From NCBI GenBank assembly GCA_043808805.1, contig JAZDEN010000032.1, forward strand, positions 1-49,616: a DNA stretch of 49,616 nucleotides, given 5' to 3'. Made by a program: the position numbers and the translations under genes. Below the pieces are notes generated by a model. The model saw nothing but the letters and a program-made list of their open reading frames with translations, was not told where the DNA came from and did no database searches. Within the stretch, counting starts at the first letter, position 1; every line of letters starts with the position of its first letter. Of the stretch, positions 1 to 38,868 are shown piece by piece. Source of the stretch: an archaeon. GTDB lineage: Archaea; Nanobdellota; Nanobdellia; SCGC-AAA011-G17; VGLX01.

Positions 1-351
1 CTTACATATAAACTGATACACATCCTTAAAACTGTGCGGACTTCAGGCCTTTCTCTGCTCAATACCATCAACAGTATTCTTGACTTCGCAAGGTCGGAAG
101 ATGGCAAACTCCAATTGGCATCCGTGCCGTTCAAGCTTGAAGAAACAATCAAAGCGATGTATTTCCACCTAAACACACAATACACTCAATTAATGGGAGA
201 GGGATTCTTCCCACAAAACGGTGCAGTAAAACTGGACAGGCTCAAAAACTACAAATTAAGGCCTGCGAAGAAACCTTTTAATTTTGTAAGGCCCATAGAC
301 CTGACAATAGTACCAAAAGATTTGTTCGAGAAAGAAGTTGTGTTTTTATGA
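1..351 (+). CDS. histidine-kinase DHp-like fragment, 5' partial (open from the window edge); no ATPase part, possibly a gene remnant
   Basis: Frame 1 is open from nt 1. 'SGLSLLNTINSILDFARSEDGKLQL' resembles the second DHp helix of HisKA domains (..LL.LINDILDFSKIEAGKLEL..). The remaining ~60 aa show no N/G1/G2 ATPase boxes in any frame. Confidence 0.35.
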   Translation, partial: LTYKLIHILKTVRTSGLSLLNTINSILDFARSEDGKLQLASVPFKLEETIKAMYFHLNTQYTQLMGEGFFPQNGAVKLDRLKNYKLRPAKKPFNFVRPIDLTIVPKDLFEKEVVFL

Positions 352-355
352 TTAA

Positions 356-811
356 TTAAAATGAAATAACCTTTGGGTTAGAGAAGAATTCTTCTTTCTT
401 AAGTTCTTCAATTATGAAAAAGGTCTTCAGTTCTAAGATATTAAATGTTTCTTCAATCTTTTCAATGAAAGACTCCTGCTCCTGCATATTCTTGAAAACC
501 ACCTCAATGATGAAATCATAACCATTGTTCACTTTGTATATGGAGTTCACGTTGAAAGACTTAACCAGGTACTCTTTAAGCTGCTCCCTATGCTCCTTGT
601 TAACCTTGATTAGAATTGTAGAAACAGTCGGGAAACCAAGCTTGTGAAAGTCTATTAGGATTGTAGGCCTTTTTATCACACCACTGATATTTTCCCTTAA
701 CTTGTCAAAAATAGTGGAAACAGGGATTCTTGTCTTCTTGGACATCGAGGTTAAGGATTCTCTTCCATTGCTTCTCAGGTTTGAGATGATTAAGAGATCG
801 GATTGTTTCAT
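356..811 (-). CDS. Lrp/AsnC-family transcriptional regulator
   Basis: 151 aa. N-terminal HTH ('LTSMSKKTRIPVSTIFDKLREN') followed by an alpha/beta RAM-like C-terminal domain. Size is typical for the family. Confidence 0.75.
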   Translation of the reverse strand: MKQSDLLIISNLRSNGRESLTSMSKKTRIPVSTIFDKLRENISGVIKRPTILIDFHKLGFPTVSTILIKVNKEHREQLKEYLVKSFNVNSIYKVNNGYDFIIEVVFKNMQEQESFIEKIEETFNILELKTFFIIEELKKEEFFSNPKVISF

Positions 812-964
812 GTTATACCATCCATACTTACTATTATAAATAACTGCGGTAAAACGTAGTTAAAACATAAGTAACATTCACTTCAATAAACAGTTAACTT
901 TAACTTAACTAAAAGGTTAAATAAAAAAAGAAAACTTTATAAGATATGACCACTCCGGAGTTGC

Positions 965-1804
965 ATGGTTTCCGTACCATTATTCTTTAACAACAAAAGA
1001 ACTGTAAAATCAAATGTTGTAGAAGTACTTCTCGAGAAGAATAAACTCAGGAAAATGGAAATATTTCGAGAAATTAAAAAGAGAGGTAATAACATAACTT
1101 TCCACGCAGTTAACAAATCAGTTAACGAGCTATCTGAGATAGATGTCCTAAAAAAATATGAGAGAGAATATGGAGTGAATCCTGAATGGATAAACCAGCT
1201 ACACGACTTCACCGAAAAGGCCAGAGTAAAATTCCTTGATGAAAACGGATCAGTACTTTATGGCATAAAAGACATAAAAAGAGAGGGAGGGATAACCACA
1301 ATAACCTTTGACAACATATATGACATGGACAAATACTACAAGGGCTTACATGAATACTACTACTCAAAACTAAAGGATGATGAAATTGTTTGTTTGACTT
1401 ACGACCACCAGTGGTGGCATATACTCTACCCCCAACAGGACTATGAACTGAATGAAGCAAATAAAAAATTCTACTGTGTAAGCACTAACAATACTTCACT
1501 TGATATTGCTGGGATTAATTTCAAAAGATTACTGGGAATGAATGTTGTAATAAGGAAACAAGGAATACAATTCAGGAATACTTCTGTTTATGGAGCAGTG
1601 GTGATACAAACTATAATAGGTAAGAACCTGAATGATTCTCTTGATAATTATTTTAGTAAAACTAAAACAATACAACATTTGAGTGCATCAAAGAGGTTTG
1701 TTGATGAGGTACTTAAGAAAAAAGGGAAGGTTATACTGATAATAAATCAAAATGCGGATTTGGCTGAAGAAGTAAGAAACCATGTTCTTGGATGTTTTAG
1801 TTAG
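965..1804 (+). CDS. hypothetical protein, possible N-terminal winged helix
   Basis: 279-aa ATG ORF. 'VEVLLEKNKLRKMEIFREIKKRGNNITFHAVNKSVNEL' looks wHTH-like. Nothing else recognised. Confidence 0.5.
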   Translation: MVSVPLFFNNKRTVKSNVVEVLLEKNKLRKMEIFREIKKRGNNITFHAVNKSVNELSEIDVLKKYEREYGVNPEWINQLHDFTEKARVKFLDENGSVLYGIKDIKREGGITTITFDNIYDMDKYYKGLHEYYYSKLKDDEIVCLTYDHQWWHILYPQQDYELNEANKKFYCVSTNNTSLDIAGINFKRLLGMNVVIRKQGIQFRNTSVYGAVVIQTIIGKNLNDSLDNYFSKTKTIQHLSASKRFVDEVLKKKGKVILIINQNADLAEEVRNHVLGCFS

Positions 1805-2885
1805 GAGAAATTTGCAATACTTTTTTTAGTGTTAGGACTTTGTTACCTTTACTTAACTGTTCTGCATTCACAGAATAACTTTTTATGTATGAGAGACAGC
1901 TCTTTTTTTCTCTGGGCATATTCTCATAGTAAGATAAACTCTTTTTTTGTTTTTCTGCTCTTGCTAAATTATGATTGATTGCTTCTTCCGAAATGGGCTG
2001 TTGTTCTATCTTTTGCTTTAACCTCTCAAAATGATTTATATCCCCATAAATCAAAGTACCACTAAATAAAGGATCAGTTGTGCTTATATTAAATTTTTTA
2101 ACTAACTCCTCTAATTCGTCTTTGTTAATATGGAATATATCCAACCACCCGTTAAAGTAATTCTGAGATTTGTCATCTGAAACTATAAAAAGGTCTATAT
2201 CCTTATCAGGCTTTTGAGATCCGTACAAAATTATAAAATTAACATCCTTGAAATGACCATCATATAAATGTTTAATAATTCCGACTACCTTATTACCATC
2301 ATAGAATTTTGGGAAGCCAAGCTGTGACATAAAACCAAATCGGGTTAATCTTTGTTCTTGTTCTCTGAAATAATCTATAAGGCTTTGGTAATGCTGGAGG
2401 AAATTTCTTCTTTTTTCTTCCCAGGTACCATAGTTTCCTGTTCCTTTACATAACATTTCTTCTAACCACATAGCAAAACCTTCATAATTCCATACATTAT
2501 GTTTTGTTAAGCCTAAAGGCTGAATATTAGGATTAACTTCACCATAAAGAAACTCGTTAGGGTCTTGACTTTTTTGTAATATACCTACTAAATCTTTTCC
2601 AATTCTTGAATGTTCACAAAATAAACCATGACCAAAGAATTCATGAAACAAATTAGTGGTAAGGGTCGTGCTGTTTTCACATAAGTAAGCCTTATAACTT
2701 TGTGGAACATACACACCTGGATGTTCTTTTTTTAAATTAGGTAACGTATCCTTATTTATATGGTAGAACTCTAACCATTCTTCTTCAGAATAAATTTTAC
2801 ATTGAGATTTTTCTGTCTTTAAATTAAATTCGTAGCTGATAAAATTAGAAGCTTCATTAATAATTGAGTCTAAAGAGATTACCAT
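1797..2885 (-). CDS. hypothetical fusion protein: N-terminal HExxH (zinc-peptidase-like) region + C-terminal minimal nucleotidyltransferase domain
   Basis: 'LFHEFFGHGLF' is an HExxH motif, with 'EGFAMWLEE' downstream as a possible third ligand. 'ILYGSQKPDKDIDLFIVSDD' matches the GS..DxD pol-beta-type NTase signature. The gene is low-GC with atypical codon usage. Confidence 0.6.
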   Translation of the reverse strand: MVISLDSIINEASNFISYEFNLKTEKSQCKIYSEEEWLEFYHINKDTLPNLKKEHPGVYVPQSYKAYLCENSTTLTTNLFHEFFGHGLFCEHSRIGKDLVGILQKSQDPNEFLYGEVNPNIQPLGLTKHNVWNYEGFAMWLEEMLCKGTGNYGTWEEKRRNFLQHYQSLIDYFREQEQRLTRFGFMSQLGFPKFYDGNKVVGIIKHLYDGHFKDVNFIILYGSQKPDKDIDLFIVSDDKSQNYFNGWLDIFHINKDELEELVKKFNISTTDPLFSGTLIYGDINHFERLKQKIEQQPISEEAINHNLARAEKQKKSLSYYENMPREKKSCLSYIKSYSVNAEQLSKGNKVLTLKKVLQISPN

Positions 2886-2897
2886 GCTATAAGATAA

Positions 2898-3128
2898 TTA
2901 TTTTTTATTTATTTTGTTAAGTTCATTTATAATACTGTCAATTTCTTCTTTACTATCACAATGGAATTGAATATCTAATGATTTTTTTAAATCTGGGCTA
3001 TGTGAGGCTACATAAAAACTTATTTGCCCTTTTTCCCTTGAAATCCATTCTAGATATTCATATACCCCCTCATAGACCAAGTTCTCGTTTATGTCATAAA
3101 TTTTTATTTTCATTACTAATACTCCCAT
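2898..3128 (-). CDS. hypothetical small protein (71-76 aa)
   Basis: The ORF start overlaps the end of the upstream gene. An alternative ATG at 3113 (MKIKIYD..) lies 2 nt after the upstream stop and is preceded by GGGAG. No family recognised. Confidence 0.45.
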   Translation of the reverse strand: MGVLVMKIKIYDINENLVYEGVYEYLEWISREKGQISFYVASHSPDLKKSLDIQFHCDSKEEIDSIINELNKINKK

Positions 3129-3616
3129 GGCTTTGGAATCTTTTTCTCATCAAATGGAAACTCTATTGGTCTTTTTGTTTCTTTAAAAACTTGTGCATAA
3201 ATGTCATATGCTTCGTTCCCGTGCCTTCCTGTATAATCACCCCTACCAAACTGTAAGTGGTTATCAGGTAAACCATCATGGGCATGCCTATCTATCCTCA
3301 TTAGAGGGGTATCAATTTCTGGTCCCATGAACTTAGTTGTTCCTTTACCAAAAGATAAACCCATAGGGTCTGGAGGATCCCATTTTGGTGGAGTAAACGG
3401 TTCTGGGATTGGAGAAGACATCTCTACTTGTTTGGCATGGAACGATTCTATTTGGGCGGATATGCTTGGAGCCCAAGGACCAGAAACAGGTATAAAAACT
3501 TCTGGTGGCTCTGGTGTAAACAAAGCAATAGTTTTAGTTAAGTACTGATCTATTGTTCTTCTAGAACCTGTTTTATTTTCATAAACTAGAATTTGCTCAA
3601 GCAAGGTTTGTTGCAT
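3116..3616 (-). CDS. hypothetical Pro-rich protein (166 aa)
   Basis: The ATG at 3616 is preceded by GGAG and by a consensus BRE/TATA at 3662-3675. No motif recognised. Confidence 0.5.
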   Translation of the reverse strand: MQQTLLEQILVYENKTGSRRTIDQYLTKTIALFTPEPPEVFIPVSGPWAPSISAQIESFHAKQVEMSSPIPEPFTPPKWDPPDPMGLSFGKGTTKFMGPEIDTPLMRIDRHAHDGLPDNHLQFGRGDYTGRHGNEAYDIYAQVFKETKRPIEFPFDEKKIPKPWEY

Positions 3617-3661
3617 TCATTTCAGCTCCTATCACCTTGCCTAATTGTAATAATCACCTTC

Positions 3662-28322: not shown

Positions 28323-29162
28323 TTAAAATTTCTGAGAAAAAATCCTTTTCTCGATGAACTTTCTCATCTCATTCACAAAAGCAACAGTCCTCTCCCTGTA
28401 AACATCATATTCCCTGCCCTCAACATCCTTAACCTGCCTGTGAACAATCTGCTTAAAAACAAGGTAGTTATCCCTCATGATCTTAGAATACTTACCCTTC
28501 AACAGGCCACGCCTAACCATCTTCTCATCAAGCATGTCAGCAATATGATCAGGAGACGGGGGAATCTCACCCAGACACATCAAAGCAGCGTGAGCAGCAT
28601 CAACAGAGGCCCAATACAAGTCAACCATAGCAGACAGGATGTGATCCCTCGACCTGCCGACAGAGGCAGGAGCCATGGTGAAATAGTTGTAGATGGACTC
28701 CTTAGTAGGCCTGATCCTCCCGTTATCAAGCAAGGACTGCAACGGGTCAAAAATGCCTGTGTCAATCAGAGCCATACCATAACGCAAGATATTAATCGCA
28801 ACTGGGTCACCAGCACGCACATACTCCCAGAACGAACTCAAACGCATGGACTGGATGTGCAAACGCTCACCGTCCTTCATATCAGAGAGAACCTTCTCAA
28901 CAATAATCCTGTAAGTCTGGACCAGGTCACGAGTAAGATTAATGCTGACATCATCAATGACTATCAGCACGTCAATGTCAGCCTCCTTCGCAAGCTTCTC
29001 CTTCTTCGCAACAGAACCGAAAAGAACAAGTGACTTTATAAAGGGACCAAACTCCTTGTAAACCCTACCTGCAAAATCCCGAGCAATATCAAACTCTTCT
29101 TTGGGATAATGAATATCAATGTTCCTCTTTCTTTTCTCAATCCTGAACTCCATCAGTATCAA
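28323..29162 (-). CDS. nucleotidyltransferase-domain protein with helical (HEPN/KNTase-C-like) C-terminal domain
   Basis: 'LVLFGSVAKKEKLAKEADIDVLIVIDD' is the GS..DxD signature. It begins 9 nt after the stop of the upstream gene. Confidence 0.7.
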   Translation of the reverse strand: MILMEFRIEKRKRNIDIHYPKEEFDIARDFAGRVYKEFGPFIKSLVLFGSVAKKEKLAKEADIDVLIVIDDVSINLTRDLVQTYRIIVEKVLSDMKDGERLHIQSMRLSSFWEYVRAGDPVAINILRYGMALIDTGIFDPLQSLLDNGRIRPTKESIYNYFTMAPASVGRSRDHILSAMVDLYWASVDAAHAALMCLGEIPPSPDHIADMLDEKMVRRGLLKGKYSKIMRDNYLVFKQIVHRQVKDVEGREYDVYRERTVAFVNEMRKFIEKRIFSQKF

Positions 29163-29171
29163 CCCCTTTTT

Positions 29172-31019
29172 TCATTCCAAACCAATCCCAGACCAGAAAG
29201 GACCTGTCTTCTCAACACCCCTGTACTCGTCAGACGGAGCATACTTGCCTACGATATACTGGGGAGACCTAGTCCTCCCAAAATACGAATCCTCAATATC
29301 AGACCACTTAAAGCTGCGATAGACAGGAGAGCTGGCAAGAGAGCCCCAAGCACCTGTCATAGCGGTGTAAAGCTGGTCCTGCGCCTGAGCACCGGGCTCA
29401 GCAATCATAGGACCAATATCAGCATCCTTAATCTTCTTTATGAAATCCTTAATAGGAGCACTACCCATACCAGGAGTTAGATGCTCATCGTAATAACCAA
29501 AGTTATCCGAAATGTGAACGTGACCTATAATACCCTCCTTAGCAAGCTTCTCAGCCTCCTTAGTAACCCACTTGTTGAAACGCTTATCATAGTCATTCCT
29601 CGACTCACCCTCATCACGCTTGAAATACTTCTTCCAGGTATTCGCGTGACCAACATCAAAAGTAGCCTTGATATGGTCTTCAGAAACCCTCCTCGCCTCA
29701 GACTCTGCCATACCACGCTCCTTAACAAGACGGTCTGTCATCTCCTTCCTTGAATTAACAATAAGCTCCCTCAATTCCCTCGGATGACTGCCATACTGGC
29801 CAGACTCAGGAAGAAGATTCTCAGGAGCCACAAAAAGAGGCTTCTTCAGCTTCATCTCATCTTCGACATCATAAGCGTAAATACCCACACGAGCAAGATT
29901 CTTAGCAGACTCCTTCTTACCATACTCCTCAAGCGGGACAATCTCACCAATCTGCTGCTCGGCCATAGCCCTCTGCTGACCATAACTAACAGCAGAATCC
30001 TCCAACTGTTTGAGATGCAACTCACGAGATTTAACTGCTTTGTTAAGATATGAAATAGGATCATCCAAAAACTTCATGTACTGCTCACTATTCGGTGGGG
30101 GGGCACCGCCTTGTATCTCCTTAACAGCCTGAATAGCCTGAAACTTTGCCAACGGAGGATTCTCCTTTAACACATCGGTTATCCTCCCTCTAATCTCCTT
30201 AAGATAACCAAGCTTCTCCTTGTCCTCATTATAACTATGAGACCATCTCCTCTCCTCAGAACTAAGCCTGGTAAGCTGCTCCGCGAGAATCTTCTGCTTG
30301 TAAAACTCCTTAGCAGCAGTCTGAGAATCCTTAATCCCCTCTTCTTTCTGAAACTGACCAAAATCAACCATCTTGAACTTATACTGCTCATTCTCATATA
30401 TGGGCTCGCCCTTATGCTCACCCTCCTTATAAGTCTGCAATATAGGAATCTTCGTATCCTTTGTCAAACCAGCCTCAATCCTACCGGTACGACTGTTAAC
30501 AAGATAAACAGGGGCCTTCTCCCTCTCACCAGGATACATCTCAAACTCCTTGTACTTCTCAGAAACCTCCCTCGGGAACTCATCGCTGTGAAAAACAACA
30601 GGACCACCACCAGCAACATCAGCAGCAAAATCAATAGTACGCTCCATCTCATGGATAGAACGCTCAGCAGCCTCAGGAGTAAATGCATTACTTCTCGCAT
30701 CCAAACCCGACAAGCCAGAAAAACCAAGAGATGCGTGAGTAGAAACAACAACCTCATTTATCTTCGAAAGCTGCCTCATAGCCTCCCTCTTATCCTTACC
30801 AAACATCTCAGGAGTAGTCTGATTACCACCAAGGGAACCTTTAGCCGTACCAGTAAAACCAAGCTCAACAGCATGAGCACCAGCACGGATTCCTGCCTGC
30901 AAATTATCAAGAACATCAGCCATACCAAGATAAGAAACACCAATGTCCTTTGCACTAATATCGAGATTATCAGCTGACTGCCTGTCCAGAGAATGCCAGT
31001 AATCAGAGGTAAATGCCAT
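29172..31019 (-). CDS. xylose-isomerase-like / Endo IV-like TIM-barrel protein interrupted by a ~290-aa charged insertion
   Basis: The N-terminal part has 'AHAVELGF', 'STHASLGF' and 'VVFHSDEF'. The C-terminal part has 'FDVGHAN' and 'GHVHISDNFGYYDEHLTPGMGSAPI'. A long Lys/Glu-rich segment with no motif lies between them. Confidence 0.6.
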   Translation of the reverse strand: MAFTSDYWHSLDRQSADNLDISAKDIGVSYLGMADVLDNLQAGIRAGAHAVELGFTGTAKGSLGGNQTTPEMFGKDKREAMRQLSKINEVVVSTHASLGFSGLSGLDARSNAFTPEAAERSIHEMERTIDFAADVAGGGPVVFHSDEFPREVSEKYKEFEMYPGEREKAPVYLVNSRTGRIEAGLTKDTKIPILQTYKEGEHKGEPIYENEQYKFKMVDFGQFQKEEGIKDSQTAAKEFYKQKILAEQLTRLSSEERRWSHSYNEDKEKLGYLKEIRGRITDVLKENPPLAKFQAIQAVKEIQGGAPPPNSEQYMKFLDDPISYLNKAVKSRELHLKQLEDSAVSYGQQRAMAEQQIGEIVPLEEYGKKESAKNLARVGIYAYDVEDEMKLKKPLFVAPENLLPESGQYGSHPRELRELIVNSRKEMTDRLVKERGMAESEARRVSEDHIKATFDVGHANTWKKYFKRDEGESRNDYDKRFNKWVTKEAEKLAKEGIIGHVHISDNFGYYDEHLTPGMGSAPIKDFIKKIKDADIGPMIAEPGAQAQDQLYTAMTGAWGSLASSPVYRSFKWSDIEDSYFGRTRSPQYIVGKYAPSDEYRGVEKTGPFWSGIGLE

Positions 31020-31057
31020 GTTAAAAAATATATTTCAGAGTTTTATTAACTTTTCCA

Positions 31058-32488
31058 TTACCAACTCAACATACTATGAGTCTTCTTGTAAACATCATAA
31101 AGCGTGTAAACATGCTCAGCAACAACCTTAGCAGCGATATCCTCCTGCTCACGCTCATAATAAGACAACTTCTTCTTATTCCCTGAATCCCACTTAAGAC
31201 CGCCAAACAAATCACCAAAACCCTTTATAACAGATGTGAAAGGGCTTATAACATCCTTCATGTAAAAAGTACCTGAAGACTTCTTATCTTCAGCATCCTT
31301 GACAATCTCACCAGCCTCAATAAGATAATTCTTCAACTCATCACCCAGAGAATCAAGAGAAGAGTCAAGAGACCTCAACAACTCCAGGTCCTCAAGCTCC
31401 TTACCCTTCTTGTAACCCTCAAGCTCTTCAGGAGTCAGAACAAAACCCTGAATGGTTATCTCAGTACGGCCCGCGTGAACAGCAGCCCTCTGAAATTCCT
31501 TCTGGAAAGCCATCTCAGGAAGCGTAACAAACCTAAACAAGACACGAATACAGGGAATCTTCTCAGTGAACTCACGCTCAACCATACCCCTATCAGTCAG
31601 CAACTCATAAGTCTTCTTGTAAGCCATCAACTCAAGCTGAATAAGACTGGTCTCAAAGGCAGAAACCATCTCAGGAGCGTTGCTCTGCTGCAACTCCAAC
31701 CTCTGGATGTTCCTCAAAAAAGGCTTAACCCACTTTATGTACATCCTCATAGACTGATAATGCTGGTTCAAGGCCTTCAACCTGAAATTCTTACCCCACT
31801 TCAACTCCTGGTAGGTCTTCTCCTTCCAGATGTAATACTCAGTAAGCTTATGCTTCAAAACACTACGAACACGAGAGTTGATACCCTCATCCTTCAACGA
31901 ATTAACAGCCCTATCAACACCAGCGCTGCCGTTGATAGGGTTAATCTTGAAAAAAAGATCGGGAATAATCACAAAACCGAGCTTACGAGACAAACCAAAA
32001 ATAGATGTTGCATTCTCAGCACCCCCCTCAACAACAGTAGTCCAGATATTCTTCAAAGCAATCTCAGCAGCCTCATCACCCTTAAGGCTCTTCACATAAT
32101 ACTCTAACCTCTCATCCATAATCCTAAGCTCACGAACCATCTGAAAAACACTCTTAGTCATACTACCAATAGTGGCCAGATACTGGGAGACACGCTCCTG
32201 CTGACGCTGCTTCCTCTCCTCAGCAGCACCAAAAAAAGTAGACATCTCAGTCGCAGAAAAAACATCAGAGGTCTTCTCAACCACATAACCAAGACCGTTC
32301 TCATGCTGCAGGAAATTAACAATCCAGAAATATGAAGGCTCAGCAGACGAGCCCATCTGCTCAACAATAAGCTTCTGCTGCTTACTGGGCTTTATATCGG
32401 AACCCAAAACCCTAGGCTTCTTAGGAGCCTCCTCACCAGGCCCCAATACACTGCCCAAAGCATTCTTGAATAATTTACTCTTAGCCAT
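31058..32488 (-). CDS. hypothetical protein (476 aa), apparently mostly helical
   Basis: The start is taken at ATG 32488 (MAKSKLFKNALG..), preceded by AGAGGT and a TATA-like 'AAAGATTTATAAAT'. No family recognised. Confidence 0.55.
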   Translation of the reverse strand: MAKSKLFKNALGSVLGPGEEAPKKPRVLGSDIKPSKQQKLIVEQMGSSAEPSYFWIVNFLQHENGLGYVVEKTSDVFSATEMSTFFGAAEERKQRQQERVSQYLATIGSMTKSVFQMVRELRIMDERLEYYVKSLKGDEAAEIALKNIWTTVVEGGAENATSIFGLSRKLGFVIIPDLFFKINPINGSAGVDRAVNSLKDEGINSRVRSVLKHKLTEYYIWKEKTYQELKWGKNFRLKALNQHYQSMRMYIKWVKPFLRNIQRLELQQSNAPEMVSAFETSLIQLELMAYKKTYELLTDRGMVEREFTEKIPCIRVLFRFVTLPEMAFQKEFQRAAVHAGRTEITIQGFVLTPEELEGYKKGKELEDLELLRSLDSSLDSLGDELKNYLIEAGEIVKDAEDKKSSGTFYMKDVISPFTSVIKGFGDLFGGLKWDSGNKKKLSYYEREQEDIAAKVVAEHVYTLYDVYKKTHSMLSW

Positions 32489-32579
32489 GTTACCTCTTTT
32501 TATTAGGTAGATGAATCGATAATTTATAAATCTTTTCACACAGAAAAACTTATTAACCATATAAGGCACTCAACAGAAT

Positions 32580-33080
32580 ATGTTTCCCGGGAAAGAGACG
32601 AGATTAAAAATATTCGCAAACAGGGTGATCCAAGAAGGTCCTTTTGACATAAACCTCATATATAAGAACCTCAAAGAGTGGTTTGACAGCCACAAATACG
32701 GGTACCACGAGCTTGAGAACACAACAAGCTTCAAGCCGAAAGGGGCTGAGATAAAGCTCAAGATGAGGGGAGAAAAAGAGGTAACCGAATACTACAAATT
32801 CTCAATAACCGTAGCATTCCTCATACTCGAGACAGAAAAAATAAAGATAGACGGAAAGGTCCTTGACAACGGAAAGCTTGAGGCAAGAGTAGAGGTTTTT
32901 ATGGAAATGGACTACAAGAAAAAATTCGAAAAATCAAAATTCGCAAAATTCATAAGATTCGTCTACAACAACTACATAATAAAACAGCAGATCTCCTCAG
33001 AATATGGGGGAAAAGCATACGGGGACGGAATGAGCCTATTTGACACCATAAAAGACACAATAGGACTGTACACACAATAA
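32580..33080 (+). CDS. hypothetical protein, paralog A of a tandem triplet (166 aa)
   Basis: Shares 'FD...LY..L..WF....Y', '.I.L...G.K.V..YYKF.I.V.F' and 'KFIRFVYNNYI' blocks with the next two genes. Confidence 0.6.
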   Translation: MFPGKETRLKIFANRVIQEGPFDINLIYKNLKEWFDSHKYGYHELENTTSFKPKGAEIKLKMRGEKEVTEYYKFSITVAFLILETEKIKIDGKVLDNGKLEARVEVFMEMDYKKKFEKSKFAKFIRFVYNNYIIKQQISSEYGGKAYGDGMSLFDTIKDTIGLYTQ

Positions 33081-33093
33081 AAAAAGAGGATAG

Positions 33094-33597
33094 ATGGCAG
33101 ACACAGAAAAAATATGGGTGACACCTCCGATGCCCGGAGGGATAAAAGTAAGACACGTAGGTTACCTAGACCTTGGAGCATTCTACACATGGCTACAGAG
33201 ATGGTTCGACTTCAACGGTTACTTCGGGGGGGACTTCGAGAGATTCTACGAAGAACACATAGACCAGGGAGGAAAGAAAATAGAGATAAGATGGGCTGGA
33301 AAGAAAAAGAAAAACCCGTACTACACATACAACATAGAGGTCATATTCCTGCTGGTTGCAGTGAACAAGGTAGAGGTACAGATGGGAGAGAAGAAGATAA
33401 AGATAGAGAAGGGAGACTTCGAGATTAGAATTGGAGGGTATGTCGAAAAGGGAATGAAAGGAGCAGGATTCCTGAGGAACATATACGAGAACATAGTAGC
33501 AAAGAAAAACGTAGACCTCTACAAGAAAGAGTGTTACGACAAGGTTTACGGGCTGCAGGAAGACATAAAAAAATACTTCAACCAATACGTACAATAA
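33094..33597 (+). CDS. hypothetical protein, paralog B of a tandem triplet (167 aa)
   Basis: 'LDLGAFYTWLQRWFDFNGY', 'KIEIRWAGKKKKNPYYTYNIEVIF' and 'FLRNIYENIV' align with A and C. Confidence 0.6.
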   Translation: MADTEKIWVTPPMPGGIKVRHVGYLDLGAFYTWLQRWFDFNGYFGGDFERFYEEHIDQGGKKIEIRWAGKKKKNPYYTYNIEVIFLLVAVNKVEVQMGEKKIKIEKGDFEIRIGGYVEKGMKGAGFLRNIYENIVAKKNVDLYKKECYDKVYGLQEDIKKYFNQYVQ

Positions 33598-33634
33598 AAA
33601 GATTTAAATAAAAAAAAGACAAAGGAATAATCAA

Positions 33635-34126
33635 ATGCCAGAATTCGACTATGTGCTAGGACCCCTGAAGGTTTCACAAGAAGCAACCTTCGACATGAAA
33701 GAACTGTACAAACTGGGAAGGGCCTGGTACAGCAAGCACGGCTACGACTTCTACGAAAAAGAATACATATCCTCATTCAAGGAAGAGGGAAAGAACGCAT
33801 CCATAAAATGGGAAGGCGACAAGAAAGTTGACGACTACATCAAATTCCACGTGGACGTAAGAGTCAAATTCAAGAACCTAAGGGAAATACAGGGAAAGAA
33901 AAAGATCATGAACATAGGAGAGGCAAGCTTCAGCGTAGAGTCATACATAGAAAGGGACTACGAATCAAACTGGGATGTCGGATTCATGACCAAATTCATA
34001 AGAGGAGTGTATGACACATTCGTGATAAGGGGAAAAATAGACAAAGACAAACAAAGACTGGCGAGCGAAGCAAACGAGCTATACCATGAGATAAGGACAT
34101 TCCTGAAGGTACATCAACCCCGATAA
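33635..34126 (+). CDS. hypothetical protein, paralog C of a tandem triplet (163 aa)
   Basis: 'FDMKELYKLGRAWYSKHGY', 'ASIKWEGDKKVDDYIKFHVDVRVKF' and 'KFIRGVYDTFVI' align with A and B. Confidence 0.6.
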   Translation: MPEFDYVLGPLKVSQEATFDMKELYKLGRAWYSKHGYDFYEKEYISSFKEEGKNASIKWEGDKKVDDYIKFHVDVRVKFKNLREIQGKKKIMNIGEASFSVESYIERDYESNWDVGFMTKFIRGVYDTFVIRGKIDKDKQRLASEANELYHEIRTFLKVHQPR

Positions 34127-34171: not shown

Positions 34172-35476
34172 ATGAAACAGGGCAGAATAACACCCTACAT
34201 AGCAGCAGGACTGATATTCCTAGGCAGCCAAGCATACGCCCAGACTGTAAAACAACAATTCTTCGACACAGTAATAGAATACGCACAGAAACAAGGGCTC
34301 AGACTAAATAAGCTCAATCCCCAAAATATAGAGATAAAAGACGAGGTGAAAAAGGACGGCGAGAAGGTATACGGCACATTCAACAAGATAACAAGAAAAA
34401 TAGAGATAATAAAGTCAAAACTTGAAAACATAGCAACGATAGGGATACATGAAGCAGCACACGAGAAGAAATACGACCCTACAAGGGAAACAGAGCTTTG
34501 GTTCGAAAAAATACCCTACAAAGTGGAAAAAACAGAAGAGGGTTATACAGCAACAGCAGACCCCAAAAGAGTTCAAGAAGGCAAGATAGCAAAAGGGCTG
34601 GAAAAAGTCATAATCAGGGAAGGATCCAGAACACCAATGCTGTATGATGACAAAGGAAAGTTCCTAGCATCATTCGAAATAATCAAGATAATAGGAGATG
34701 ACACAAAAACATTGAGAATAATGACAGCAGAACACCCCATAAACGGGGTGCAAGGGAAGTTCTACTACGAGAAAGAAAACAACGAATTATACTACATACC
34801 ATCCGACGTGATGGGATTCCAGAACGAGATAGTAGCAAGGCTATACGAACAGATATTCAGCGGGTACTACGTAGGAAAAGTGGAAAATCCCACAACCACC
34901 CAGGACAAAACCCAACTTGGAAAATCACTCACATACCTAACAACACTCTACACTCTGACACCCGAACAACAAAAGATGTCAAAAAACTCCGAAGAAGCGT
35001 ACAAGAGAATAAACGAAATGGCACTCATAGGGATAGTAGACAAGACAATAGAGGTAGGAGGGAAAGACTTCAAACAGATGATGGAAGACCTACAAGACAA
35101 CCAATTCGCAAAAAACATAGCACTGGCATCAGTCCTCATGCCCGAACACGACTTCAAAGCATTACTGGACATATACGACTCAACAAACAAGGAAGAGATA
35201 AACAAGCTCATGAGCCAATACAACAAAGAACTCCAAGAAACGAGAAAGATAGGGAACATATCTGAAGAACAGGTAATGCTTGAATACATAAAAAGATTCA
35301 ACCTCAACGAAAACGAAGCATGGTATGTAATGGCAAAAACAAGAGCGAGAAGCTTTGACGAAATATTCAGAAGCCAAGAAAAACTGAAACACATAGAAAA
35401 AATAAAACAGGCAAACCTCGAAAAGATGATGGAACAATTCAAGGGAAAAGAGGAAAGCATAACAAAAGGTTTATAA
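34172..35476 (+). CDS. secreted hypothetical protein with an HExxH motif
   Basis: Signal peptide 'ITPYIAAGLIFLGSQAYA'. 'IGIHEAAHEKKY' is an HExxH motif near residue 93. The rest is not recognised. Confidence 0.55.
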   Translation: MKQGRITPYIAAGLIFLGSQAYAQTVKQQFFDTVIEYAQKQGLRLNKLNPQNIEIKDEVKKDGEKVYGTFNKITRKIEIIKSKLENIATIGIHEAAHEKKYDPTRETELWFEKIPYKVEKTEEGYTATADPKRVQEGKIAKGLEKVIIREGSRTPMLYDDKGKFLASFEIIKIIGDDTKTLRIMTAEHPINGVQGKFYYEKENNELYYIPSDVMGFQNEIVARLYEQIFSGYYVGKVENPTTTQDKTQLGKSLTYLTTLYTLTPEQQKMSKNSEEAYKRINEMALIGIVDKTIEVGGKDFKQMMEDLQDNQFAKNIALASVLMPEHDFKALLDIYDSTNKEEINKLMSQYNKELQETRKIGNISEEQVMLEYIKRFNLNENEAWYVMAKTRARSFDEIFRSQEKLKHIEKIKQANLEKMMEQFKGKEESITKGL

Positions 35477-35499: not shown

Positions 35500-35943
35500 A
35501 TGAAACTAAAAAGGCTCATAACCTCAGCCATAATCGTAATAATAATTGACCAACTGACAAAAATACTTCTAACAAAAAAACAATACAACATCTTCGGCAT
35601 CAACCTGATAAACTACACAGAAAACACAGGAGCCGCATTCAGCATACTTGAAGGCTACAGATGGCTCTTCATAACAGTATCATCCATAGCTATCATAATA
35701 CTCCTTTACTATGCAACAACGCTGGGACAAGAAGAAAAAAAACTGGAAATCCCACTGGGAATACTGATAGGAGGGATGGCAGGCAACCTAATAGACAGAA
35801 TACTTCTCGGTTACGTAAGAGACTTCATAGACCTACAGATATGGGCCATCTTCAACCTAGCAGACACAGCAGTATTCATGGCAATAATAATACTATGCGT
35901 TTATCTGATAAGAAAAAGCTTCAGGAAGACTACTTATCACTGA
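35500..35943 (+). CDS. lspA: lipoprotein signal peptidase (signal peptidase II)
   Basis: 'NTGAAFS', 'GGMAGNLIDR', 'VRDFID' and 'IFNLADTAV' are present, with 4 TM segments. Confidence 0.8.
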   Translation: MKLKRLITSAIIVIIIDQLTKILLTKKQYNIFGINLINYTENTGAAFSILEGYRWLFITVSSIAIIILLYYATTLGQEEKKLEIPLGILIGGMAGNLIDRILLGYVRDFIDLQIWAIFNLADTAVFMAIIILCVYLIRKSFRKTTYH

Positions 35944-37148: not shown

Positions 37149-37856
37149 TTAATGTTTTTTAATCTTCAAAACATCCTTGTAAACAGGACACAGCGCAAAG
37201 TCAGAGCCCCGGCCATAAAACCTCTTCGCATGCTCAACGAGCAAAGCATGATATTCCTGATAAACAACCAAATCCTTCCTTATACCCTTCTCAAAAAACC
37301 CCTTAACCTCATCGTAACCAGCATCCCTGTCTACAAGACCCAAATTCGAGAACACCCTCTTTGTGTAAGCATCCACAACAAAGGTTGGGACGTTAAATGC
37401 ATAAAGCAGCATGGAATCTGCTGTCTCCTCACCAATCCCCCAAACAGACAACAACTCATCACGAGAAGGCACCTTTCCATCGAGATTTATGTAAAAATCA
37501 GAGAACAACCTAAGCTTCTTAGCCTTCTGGTTGAAATAGCCAGCAGGCCTTATTGCTTTGCAAAGCTTTTTTTCATCAATGCCCCTCATTGATAAGGGAG
37601 TCAACGCACCTATCGACTTTAAATTCCTAATCGCCTTCTCAGTCTGGGCCCAACTCGTATTCTGCGTCAGGACGGCACCAACACAGATCTCAAACCTCTC
37701 AGAATCATTTCTGGGAAATGAATAATCACCAGGATGATAGCCTGAAGATGAACCAGTCTTAGTGGGATTAACACCTTTATGGCTGGCCAGAGGCCACCAA
37801 CCCTGAGGCCCATAACAGGAATAAAGAAACTTGTAGACTTTCATGACATCATTCAT
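37149..37856 (-). CDS. endonuclease III-related HhH-GPD protein (COG2231-like)
   Basis: Contains 'AVLTQNTSWAQTEKAIRNLK' and 'LLSVWGIGEETADSMLLYAFNVPTFVVDAYTKRV'. The start is taken at ATG 37856 to avoid overlapping the upstream gene. Confidence 0.7.
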   Translation of the reverse strand: MNDVMKVYKFLYSCYGPQGWWPLASHKGVNPTKTGSSSGYHPGDYSFPRNDSERFEICVGAVLTQNTSWAQTEKAIRNLKSIGALTPLSMRGIDEKKLCKAIRPAGYFNQKAKKLRLFSDFYINLDGKVPSRDELLSVWGIGEETADSMLLYAFNVPTFVVDAYTKRVFSNLGLVDRDAGYDEVKGFFEKGIRKDLVVYQEYHALLVEHAKRFYGRGSDFALCPVYKDVLKIKKH

Positions 37857-37893
37857 AAGAAAAAGAGGATAGGGCACTTGTAAATAAAACTTT

Positions 37894-38868
37894 TCAAATA
37901 CTAGGACCTTTTGGGATGTGAACCTTAGTCCCTTTAGGCACGAAATCACTTCTGATTGCAGGGTTGACCATCTTCAGGTCGGTAACCTTCACATTGTGCA
38001 ACTTAGCAACCTTATTCAGAGGAACATCCTTACCAGCAACATACTCCCCAACCCTCAAACTCGACATAGGCTTTGCCTTGCTGAAATTAATGTTAAACCT
38101 GGAAGGATCAGAGAATATCTGCATCTTAGCGGCAACCTGAAGTATGTAGTCACGAGACTCATAAGGGATCATCGCATTCTTAACAATGTCCGCATGACCC
38201 AGAATTTTACTAAGATTATCCAAAGTCCAGGTAGGACCAGCGTTATAAGCTATAAGCCCAACAACATGATCCTTGAAATAATCTATGTACTTCTTCATGT
38301 ACTTACTCGAAGCCACTATAGCCTTAGGATCAAAACGCTCATCCACGTTGTGGTTAACGGTCAGTTCAACCTCACGGGCAGCAACAGGCATGAGACCTCC
38401 AAGACCTGCAGCACCCTTATGGGACTCCGCATGGGTATTACCCTCAGACTCCTGAGCAACATAAGCCTTAATGAAGTTGATATCATAACCAGTCTCCCTG
38501 CTAGCCTGCTCAAAATAGTCATCATAAGCAGACAGCTTTGAAAGAATCAACTCAAGCTCCTTCCTGGAATCCTCTGAACCAACCAACTTCTCAATCCTGG
38601 CCTTAACCTTAGAACCCAAATTATGCTTTGTTATACCTCTATTAAACGTCCTGTCAACCCTGTTCTCAAGAGTCTCCTCCAGCCTGTATACAGCATTCTT
38701 AGGGTTGAAGGTAAGAGCACTTGAAGGATGTATAGAGCTGGGGAGTATTAGAGTTGCTGCAAACAGAGGGATAACAAGATACTTTTTAAAAGAGCTAGAA
38801 CTATTCTTTTCTTCTACATGATTGTTACGCCAGTATGACGCACACCCATTAAAATCACTTCGAACCAT
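37894..38868 (-). CDS. membrane-anchored lytic transglycosylase (SLT domain) with C-terminal LysM
   Basis: 'AQESEGNTHAESHKGAAGLGGLMP' and 'IAYNAGPT' are SLT family 1 motifs. The C-terminal 'YVAGKDVPLNKVAKLHNVKVTDLKMVNP....GTKVHIP' is LysM-like. An N-terminal TM is present. Confidence 0.75.
   Translation of the reverse strand: MVRSDFNGCASYWRNNHVEEKNSSSSFKKYLVIPLFAATLILPSSIHPSSALTFNPKNAVYRLEETLENRVDRTFNRGITKHNLGSKVKARIEKLVGSEDSRKELELILSKLSAYDDYFEQASRETGYDINFIKAYVAQESEGNTHAESHKGAAGLGGLMPVAAREVELTVNHNVDERFDPKAIVASSKYMKKYIDYFKDHVVGLIAYNAGPTWTLDNLSKILGHADIVKNAMIPYESRDYILQVAAKMQIFSDPSRFNINFSKAKPMSSLRVGEYVAGKDVPLNKVAKLHNVKVTDLKMVNPAIRSDFVPKGTKVHIPKGPSI

Follow-up and report, generated by a model that had tools for sequence, protein, structure and literature searches.

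A block of six genes at positions 28323–34126 of an archaeal contig, JAZDEN010000032.1, comprises two putative transcription units in divergent orientation, and is vertically inherited and lineage-specific. Its conserved core is a gene for an orphan protein of 476 amino acids (aa), here called H476, followed on the same strand by the gene for a split TIM barrel enzyme and usually then by that for a nucleotidyltransferase (NTase); the full six-gene layout, with three small paralogous genes on the opposite strand, belongs to a sub-lineage. We refer to the whole stretch of DNA analysed, 49,616 nucleotides (nt) long, as the window. We hold with high confidence that this neighbourhood is real, vertically inherited and specific to archaea of the Woesearchaeales/Pacearchaeales type, and consider it more likely than not that H476 and the TIM barrel are functionally coupled. 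As to what the genes do, our preferred but tentative reading of the sequence evidence is that the minus-strand unit may be a module for processing nucleic-acid ends or abasic sites, with H476 as its non-catalytic partner.

Conservation of the gene neighbourhood

At least 536 species-level loci carry an H476 homolog. We fetched 80 species-representative loci together with seven from contig look-ups, and scanned 85 loci with iterated hidden Markov models (HMMs) built from the window proteins, counting only loci with enough flank. In 62/74 loci (84%), a TIM barrel gene follows H476 on the same strand at a distance of at most 3 kb; identity of H476 across these 62 loci is 37–75%, and the gap between the two genes shrinks to as little as 2–4 nt. 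The NTase gene directly follows the TIM barrel in 26/54 loci, and is found within 5 kb of H476 in 32/56 and within 9 kb in 38/51. A member of the paralog family stands upstream of H476 in 23/59 loci (39%), and lspA, which adjoins the paralog genes in either orientation, does so within 4.5 kb in 41/63, frequently in divergent orientation to H476. Paralog copy number is one in 17 species representatives, two in 2 and three in 5; a metagenomic contig, L087, holds a further triplet.

A preliminary description of this DNA had put the six genes forward as one system and asked whether the 476-aa, TIM barrel and triplet genes occur together elsewhere. The scan of 85 loci bore out that the neighbourhood is conserved in related DPANN genomes, and the pairing of H476 with the TIM barrel stood; the co-occurrence of the paralogs did not, nor did that of the full triplet, which is limited to five representatives and L087. 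The idea of a single six-gene system falls with it: the paralogs, near H476 in the minority of loci just given, keep company with lspA, and their ordered triplet is a property of a minority lineage.

Part of this conservation is gene-order inertia, because unrelated housekeeping flanks are syntenic as well: the phosphoenolpyruvate (PEP) synthase gene lies convergently downstream of H476 in 19/41 loci (46%), and the genes for glutamyl-tRNA synthetase (GluRS) and a PUA methyltransferase lie upstream of it in 14–19 loci. It can be argued from these flanks that there is no system at all, that unrelated genes have stayed adjacent through slow change of gene order, and that the TIM barrel is simply the apurinic/apyrimidinic (AP) endonuclease of the clade with a decorative insert. 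The paralogs and lspA, which occur both co-directionally and convergently, fit that account, as does a paralog-family member in another context (contig L086, below). Inertia of this kind could account for the linkage of the NTase and the paralogs to H476, and about 12 informative loci with H476 and no TIM barrel nearby tell against the coupling of the core pair. What inertia does not readily explain is that the adjacency of H476 and the TIM barrel is far above that of any flank gene and survives changed flanks (L005, L017 and L039), that the two genes keep to one strand with gaps of 2–4 nt or a single small lysine- and glutamate-rich (K/E-rich) gene between them, and that the order of the triplet is kept across deep divergence. 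We judge the absence of any system to be somewhat unlikely, and a functional tie between the paralog unit and the minus-strand unit to be doubtful.

All six open reading frames (ORFs) are real genes, each with many homologs; the ORFs, coordinates, spacing and divergent region first reported for the block were all recovered in the ORF list. H476 occupies 31058–32488 on the minus strand, within an ORF of 31058–32569. Its start at ATG 32488 is backed by the same 'MAK...' start in close homologs, and a Shine–Dalgarno-like AGAGGT (32492–32497) stands 4–9 nt 5' of that ATG. The TIM barrel gene follows at 29172–31019 (minus strand, 615 aa) after a gap of 38 nt, and the NTase gene at 28323–29153 (minus strand, 276 aa from ATG 29153). 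The NTase ORF reaches a TTG at 29162 (279 aa), which would narrow the gap to the TIM barrel from 18 to 9 nt; in an ortholog alignment the ATG is favoured by 'MEFRIEK', which resembles the 'MKFxIxK' of the orthologs. A divergent intergenic region of 91 bp (32489–32579) separates H476 from the plus-strand genes for paralog 1 (32580–33080, 166 aa), paralog 2 (33094–33597, 167 aa) and paralog 3 (33635–34126, 163 aa), which belong to an orphan family of about 165 aa. Hydropathy analysis revealed no transmembrane-grade hydrophobic window in any of the six proteins, and none has a signal peptide.

Two small proteins missing from the window recur at related loci. In many relatives, some 30 or more of the loci (such as L001:9509-9958, L011:3562-4077 and L013:11326-11865), a K/E-rich protein of about 140–230 aa is encoded either between H476 and the TIM barrel gene or immediately beyond the latter. 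It is fast-evolving with a conserved N-terminal helix, 'L..LP..ER...LKELL'; the closest relatives of the window, L006 and L007, share with it a gap of 38–39 nt at this place instead. In 13 loci (such as L003:6795-7121, L005:7548-7913 and L011:1278-1511), a protein of about 107 aa is encoded between lspA and H476, with an 'MGLFxFFKKK' N-terminus, then a disordered part and a coiled coil, and R-W at its C-terminus. Its N-terminus resembles the membrane-targeting helices of SepF, PspA or ESCRT-III.

The minus-strand proteins and their proposed chemistry

The TIM barrel is encoded in two halves, an N-half (aa 1 to about 160, nt 30540–31019) and a C-half (aa 396–615, nt 29172–29834), separated by a K/E-rich, coiled-coil-like insert of about 235 aa (aa about 161–395, nt 29835–30539), all on the minus strand. 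Pfam PF01261 (AP_endonuc_2) matches it in two separated stretches with 57.7 bits against a cutoff of 31.1, and matches 28/28 orthologs, with a best E of 8e-20; this two-piece match above the gathering threshold upholds the earlier description of a split TIM barrel of the endonuclease IV (Endo IV)/xylose-isomerase type. Searched against the PDB, a profile of the 28 orthologs found MJ1311 (3wqo) at E 1.3e-11 in three collinear pieces around the insert, with D-tagatose-3-epimerases next at E of about 1e-3. MJ1311 is listed as the Methanocaldococcus jannaschii homolog of Endo IV; Pyrococcus furiosus PF0258 (PfuAPE), only 13.5% identical to Escherichia coli Nfo, is a genuine AP endonuclease, and its paralog PF1383, which has no equivalents of H69, H109 and E261, is inactive (PMC2770678).

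With the insert deleted, the TIM barrel profile aligned collinearly over 228–271 columns with seven Endo IV sequences, namely Nfo (equal to 1QTW) and six annotated nfo genes from plasmid records. H95, H144, E400, D455 and H458 of the TIM barrel align to H69, H109, E145, D179 and H182 of Nfo, and H502, D511, H513 and E541 align to H216, D229, H231 and E261. All nine residues are invariant or at least 90% conserved in the 28 orthologs, and the six C-terminal ligands (E400 to E541) were also aligned in a separate alignment of the C-half to Endo IV. The epimerases matched in the PDB carry N-R where the TIM barrel family has D-E-H. Placed on this alignment, the insert would start just after the H144/E147 strand, the fourth of the barrel, on its catalytic face.

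Read most economically, these comparisons would make the TIM barrel a phosphodiesterase that works by Endo IV chemistry and has been reshaped by an insert specific to the lineage, and on balance we lean towards its performing Endo-IV-type phosphodiester chemistry on nucleic acid. Nucleic-acid chemistry had been offered as speculation in the preliminary description; the nine aligned Endo IV ligands raise it to the leading hypothesis. We found a number of results that pull the other way. The hhalign match to the Endo IV sequences has little statistical strength (E 0.0024, probability 12%), and hhalign against the single Nfo sequence, global or local, was uninformative, full-length collinearity appearing only with the multi-sequence alignment. 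No bacterial Endo IV chain was recovered in the PDB profile search at E≤1, nor did the NCBIfam Endo IV model match at E≤1; 3wqo/MJ1311 itself was deposited as 'uncharacterized'. The xylose-isomerase-like superfamily also holds sugar isomerases, epimerases and dehydratases. On the wider module, the operon does not consistently include a ligase, polymerase or glycosylase in the loci scanned, no nucleic-acid-binding fold was detectable in H476 by profile and fold searches, and the NTase might use a protein or a small molecule as its substrate. If H476 and the TIM barrel do not cooperate, the TIM barrel would still likely be the AP endonuclease of the clade.

The third gene of the unit had been called a nucleotidyltransferase, and rightly so: Pfam PF01909 (NTP_transf_2) scores 26.2 bits against a cutoff of 21, and the Pol-beta motif is invariant. 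A minimal N-terminal domain with LFGS...DIDVLIVIDD is followed by a strongly conserved C-terminal domain of about 150 aa that has no Pfam match. LFGS (48–50), D62-I-D64 and D71 are invariant in the orthologs, giving hG[GS]-x(9-13)-Dh[DE]h followed by a third carboxylate, and with 60% mean column identity among orthologs the NTase is the best-conserved protein of the block. PF18765 and PF01909 both match 24/24 orthologs, 11 of which also weakly match a poly(A)-polymerase palm model. Among sequences in the PDB, the NTase is matched best by a 120-aa MNT-type NTase (9xbd), kanamycin NTase and HalB.

Such matches could place the block among defence, toxin–antitoxin or mobile modules (CBASS, Hailong or MNT-HEPN), which we consider very improbable. 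The matches concerned are weak and generic: PADLOC PDC-S09 at domain level (E 4e-8), HalB with 16.9 bits against a cutoff of 190, and MntA with 14.5 against 60. HEPN gave no Pfam match at E≤1 in the 24 NTase orthologs, whose conserved columns hold no Rx4-6H motif, and no other component of the block matches PADLOC or PHROGs. Hundreds of species carry the block at one chromosomal position between housekeeping flanks, its codon bias matches that of the host strand, and no integrase, repeats or tRNA lie nearby. These sub-cutoff scores and the syntenic core-chromosome locus effectively refute a defence or mobile origin.

H476, the partner of the TIM barrel, is an orphan against the libraries searched. 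It has at least 522 homologs, all named 'hypothetical' and sharing no Pfam domain that recurs, and is near-universal in the clade. There was no match in Pfam, NCBIfam, PADLOC or PHROGs, and PDB sequence and profile searches were empty; searching Pfam with 60 homologs singly gave scattered chance matches, the commonest being Phage_int_SAM_4 (9/60, best E 0.028). The claim that all six proteins are unrecognised holds for H476 and the three paralogs, which remained unmatched in profile and fold searches, and fails for the TIM barrel, which is of the Endo IV/MJ1311 type.

An AlphaFold 2 (AF2) model of H476 has medium confidence, with a predicted local distance difference test score (pLDDT) of 75 and a predicted template-modelling score (pTM) of 0.55. 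It contains a beta-alpha-beta unit (aa 36–79), a helical hairpin insert of about 180 aa (84–264) and five strands (281–351), after which come acidic helices, a segment modelled at low confidence in which PF...F.GF..LFG is conserved, and a final pair of helices. The protein had been described as mostly helical; it is largely so, and the model adds a sheet of about seven strands. The hairpin consists of two helices of about 55 residues (84–135 and 205–264) joined by a small helical tip (139–199), and the insert is basic, with an isoelectric point (pI) of 9.9. Thirty invariant columns cluster in IRELRIxDERLxYY and LKxIWxxxVEGGAxNxxSxxGLxxxxGFxxxPDLFF. The tip, which holds LK.IW..VEGGA.N..S..GL...GF...PDLFF, is the most conserved part of H476 and also includes its most hydrophobic stretch, GFVIIPDLFF; H476 has no transmembrane segment and is soluble by hydropathy.

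Foldseek searches with this model found nothing in the PDB or BFVD at E≤1e-3. The top matches were coiled-coil hairpins (EmrA, STAT and Smc5/6) with a template-modelling score (TM) below 0.25, and single-stranded-RNA-phage maturation proteins matched at chance level. We dropped a capsid, tail or portal origin on account of such chance-level matches, and on the same fold searches also dropped membership of H476 among pore-forming toxins, SPFH proteins, ESCRT-III/PspA, XRCC4 or proteins resembling aminoacyl-tRNA synthetases.

Both H476 and the TIM barrel have fixed C-termini. Every complete TIM barrel ortholog listed ends in a hydrophobic residue and glutamate (PLE, PME, QLE or GLE; 29172–29180 in the window), and the C-termini of H476 are mostly M-[LMF]-[STA]-[W/P/E] (31058–31072), with W in 58/120. 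These endings suggest possible docking or active-site roles. At the other end, many H476 orthologs open with a short Phe-rich hydrophobic stretch followed by Lys and Glu, as in MADGLFGLFKKK; the motif is missing in many other orthologs and is weak in H476 of the window.

In the processing module that we favour, H476, the TIM barrel and the NTase would be read in that order as one minus-strand operon. The TIM barrel would cut or clean phosphodiester ends in nucleic acid, for example at abasic sites or 3'-blocked ends, and the NTase would act on the same substrate, adding nucleotides or nucleotidylating it. H476, with its long basic helical hairpin and conserved tip, may position or regulate the TIM barrel enzyme.

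The paralog triplet and the putative divergent promoter region

The three small plus-strand proteins are 28–29% identical to one another in pairs, with 21 invariant columns, which establishes them as true paralogs, as had been proposed. A profile search of 1.84 billion representatives returned 1,604 clusters of the family (defined at 50% identity) at E≤1e-3 and 786 at E≤1e-10. With few exceptions these proteins are 160–175 aa long and have a single domain; the few with a source name are called 'hypothetical'. No match was found in Pfam, NCBIfam, PADLOC or PHROGs, and a PDB profile search gave one chance match.

Copies 1, 2 and 3 of every triplet best match copies 1, 2 and 3 of the window, respectively, in all six triplet loci, even where H476 is only about 40% identical. 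This positional orthology argues that the triplication is old and ordered, and suggests that the three may be non-redundant subunits. Among single-copy loci, 6/8 score best against copy 3, the type most often retained, beside lspA, where there is one copy. On a distant contig in a Patescibacteria bin (L086:5166-10103), a 210-aa member lies between an SMC/Rad50-like ATPase (954 aa) and an orphan of 467 aa; we compared this neighbour with H476 and found it unrelated. Because the L086 member sits elsewhere, the paralog family is not confined to the H476/lspA context.

The AF2 model of paralog 2 is confident (pLDDT 89, pTM 0.82) and has a beta-beta-alpha-beta-beta order with two strands of about 20 residues and a C-terminal helix of 39 residues. 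Almost all of its top 35 or so Foldseek matches in the PDB are PYR/PYL, Bet v 1 and START proteins, at E of about 1.5e-3 and TM 0.14–0.25; CERT is also among these helix-grip matches, and the Cyt-type volvatoxin A2 gave the best TM, 0.30. We describe the predicted fold as helix-grip-like and make no claim of membership in that superfamily. The paralogs, with a BRE/TATA-like element of their own, probably assemble into a hetero-oligomer, or else serve to bind a hydrophobic ligand or peptide.

Fold matches of this kind raise another reading, in which the block would be a membrane-peripheral or envelope-lipid module. On this view H476 would join the paralogs and the small coiled-coil proteins in a scaffold or a complex for handling lipid at the membrane, perhaps engaged with lipid scavenged from a host or with LspA lipoprotein maturation. 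The substrate of the TIM barrel would be a sugar- or lipid-phosphate head group, which the NTase would activate. The likeness of the paralog model to PYL, Bet v 1, START, CERT and Cyt-type volvatoxin speaks for it, as do the steady presence of lspA nearby, the hydrophobic tip GFVIIPDLFF, the Phe-rich starts of some H476 orthologs, the coiled-coil protein of about 107 aa and the weak profile match of the TIM barrel to sugar epimerases. Other observations speak against it: the fold matches are weak (TM about 0.2, E about 1e-3), the Phe-rich motif is absent from many H476 orthologs, the six proteins have neither transmembrane segments nor signal peptides, the full Endo IV His/Asp set is not in the matched epimerases, and the adjacency of lspA changes orientation. 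We regard a lipid module, both in its scaffold and in its proposed chemistry, as quite unlikely, and return to the processing module as the preferred reading.

The two AF2 models also hint at kinship across the block: if the hairpin of H476 is taken as an insertion, the order of secondary structure in its core is that of the paralog. Aligned by hhalign, the H476 and paralog profiles gave a probability of 9% at full length and 26% (E 7e-4) with residues 84–267 deleted; the latter alignment is collinear over 136 columns and pairs 'YFWIxNFL' with 'FYTWLQRWF'. Larger alignments gave a probability of 13% (E 2e-3), compared with E 0.31 for a reversed-sequence control. These results are suggestive of distant homology over the alpha/beta core, and such homology may explain why the genes are adjacent. 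A bolder extension would make H476 and the triplet one undescribed superfamily with a helix-grip-like core, forming a hetero-oligomer that controls an Endo-IV-derived phosphodiesterase and an NTase only in Woesearchaeota/Pacearchaeota-type archaea; we think this unlikely. The same low expectation applies to its particulars, an H476 core split by a basic hairpin of 180 aa and a nucleic-acid or membrane-proximal processing system without counterpart in other archaea or bacteria, and we would not expect the orphan proteins to define something categorically new. Both the homology, which is below significance at 13–26% probability, and the Foldseek TM of paralog 2, only about 0.2, count against going further.

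Between the two units, the 91-bp region holds a promoter-like element facing each way. On the minus strand, ATTTATAAA (32523–32531) lies 35–43 nt upstream of the H476 ATG and is followed by AGAGGT/GAGG. On the plus strand, CAGAAAAACTTATTAA (32541–32556), a 16-mer resembling a B recognition element (BRE) and TATA box, ends 24 nt before the paralog-1 ATG and occurs once in the window. Aligned with the window, L007, L001 and L065 have both elements at the same positions, and L087 and L013 also have the paralog-side element. At loci where the paralog operon adjoins H476, and only there, an element of the CAGAAAAACTTATTAA type stands 72–81 nt upstream of H476; in L013, where H476 is 2.3 kb away, it stays with the paralog operon.

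We infer that both elements are promoters; the spacing on the paralog side is consistent with a BRE/TATA pair serving a leaderless paralog-1 mRNA. Because the paralog-side element stays with its operon in L013, the two units appear to have separate, abutting core promoters. The shared promoter region of the preliminary description survives in that conserved promoter-like elements face both ways, and is modified in that these read as separate elements, one per unit. Co-regulation of the two units is possible.

Genomic setting and comparison with known systems

The window reads as a chromosome of a Woesearchaeales-type DPANN archaeon, because homologs of H476 come almost all from such bins, the closest being 75–86% identical. 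The bins are labelled Woesearchaeota, Pacearchaeota or Nanoarchaeota/Nanoarchaeia, with some named 'archaeon' or 'uncultured Methanosarcinales'. Housekeeping genes flank the block: those for PEP synthase, signal peptidase II, a YchF/Obg-like GTPase, an HhH-GPD glycosylase, GluRS and threonyl-tRNA synthetase (ThrRS). The three minus-strand genes of the block have a third-position AT (AT3) skew of -0.75 to -0.79, and the three plus-strand genes one of +0.65 to +0.81. Over the whole span downstream of about 3.7 kb, plus-strand genes range from +0.65 to +0.83, except five short genes with lower values of +0.30 to +0.53, and minus-strand genes range from -0.42 to -0.81. The codon strand rule first noted for the six genes agrees with their same-strand neighbours, and this fit, together with the housekeeping flanks, supports the long residence in the genome that had been deduced from it.

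The strand bias is itself extreme. In the window from 3700 to 49616, mean AT3 skew is +0.68 in plus-strand and -0.59 in minus-strand genes, a strand effect of 0.64, and the plus-strand DNA has about seven A per T at third positions, whichever strand codes. The strand effect in 59 related Woesearchaeal loci has a median of 0.08 and a maximum of 0.45, and is 0.37 in the closest relative, L007. One-directional replication and an unusual mutational or repair regime are possibilities. From 1 to 3650, the first four genes (356–811, an Lrp/AsnC regulator; 965–1804; 1797–2885, with a weak Pol-beta NTase match; and 3116–3616) have an AT3 skew of about 0, no strand bias and a lower GC content of 0.29–0.38. 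The sharp compositional boundary at about 3.6–3.7 kb might reflect an assembly join, recent acquisition of DNA or a point at which replication switches.

Downstream of the triplet on the plus strand are the genes for a secreted protein of 434 aa (34172–35476), with a signal peptide ending ...SQAYA-Q, and for LspA, the bacterial-type lipoprotein signal peptidase II (35500–35943; Pfam PF01252, Peptidase_A8, E 4e-32). The secreted protein, placed between triplet and lspA, has no Pfam match and a single homolog among the 85 related loci; it was thus inserted into the plus-strand unit recently, is specific to the lineage and lies outside the conserved block. Scans of the window for tRNA and Rfam families found nothing. 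Two minus-strand genes 3–5 kb from the block (37149–37949 and 37894–38868) encode an HhH-GPD base-excision glycosylase and a protein with an SLT lytic-transglycosylase domain, and an HhH-GPD gene is also found two genes beyond lspA on L087 (10064–10735). A base-excision glycosylase is a natural upstream partner of an Endo-IV-type enzyme. Castelle et al. 2021 (PMC8204110) noted murein-like transglycosylases in Woesearchaeota and Pacearchaeota, and the SLT domain is reminiscent of these.

Woesearchaeota and Pacearchaeota rank among the most abundant of the uncultured archaea, and no function has been assigned to most of the proteins specific to these clades. The present analysis turns an anonymous block into testable objects: H476 with its defined tip, a split Endo-IV-type enzyme, a highly conserved NTase and a fixed triplet with its promoter-like element. 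Should H476 and the TIM barrel cooperate, they would show a universal repair enzyme rebuilt in a symbiont lineage with reduced genomes, and would assign a role to some of the protein dark matter of which 'Module 98' is an example. That module comprises 51 families, mostly of unknown function, that are widespread in and specific to Pacearchaeota and Woesearchaeota, and was described statistically (Castelle et al. 2021, PMC8204110). Its phyletic pattern and missing annotation recur in H476 and the paralog family, a likeness by pattern only; gene clusters, structures and functions are not described in the paper. Uncharacterised orthologs specific to Nanobdellota are mentioned in a 2026 preprint, which does not describe the H476 cluster. 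Literature searches found no description of an H476–TIM barrel–NTase/paralog cluster, and the original statement that the gene combination matches no described system stands after these and the PADLOC searches.

The nearest known relatives concern single components. With the MJ1311/PF0258 group of Endo IV enzymes, the TIM barrel has in common the PF01261 superfamily, the FDxGHA and HxxDN...DEHxxxGxG motifs and the nine aligned ligands; it differs in being split by its insert between the strands equivalent to those of H109 and E145, in an extra conserved C-terminal tail ending in hydrophobic-Glu, and in the coupling of its gene to that of an orphan coiled-coil protein. Paralog 2 has the element order of the helix-grip class (START/Bet v 1/PYR-PYL, SRPBCC), beta-alpha-beta4 and then a long C-helix, and almost all of its top Foldseek matches belong to that class, but it has no Pfam or profile match, has fewer and much longer strands, and occurs in an ordered triplet. 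The NTase shares with kanamycin nucleotidyltransferase (KNTase), MntA and HalB an N-terminal fold with hGS-x(n)-DxD and then a separate C-terminal domain, and is collinear with KNTase over aa 17–75 and weakly with HalB in both domains; unlike the NTases of resistance, toxin–antitoxin or defence systems, it is a core, highly conserved single-copy gene. What is new, set beside these relatives, is the architecture and partnership in which an enzyme of the Endo IV type and a Pol-beta NTase occur here, beside an ordered orphan triplet.

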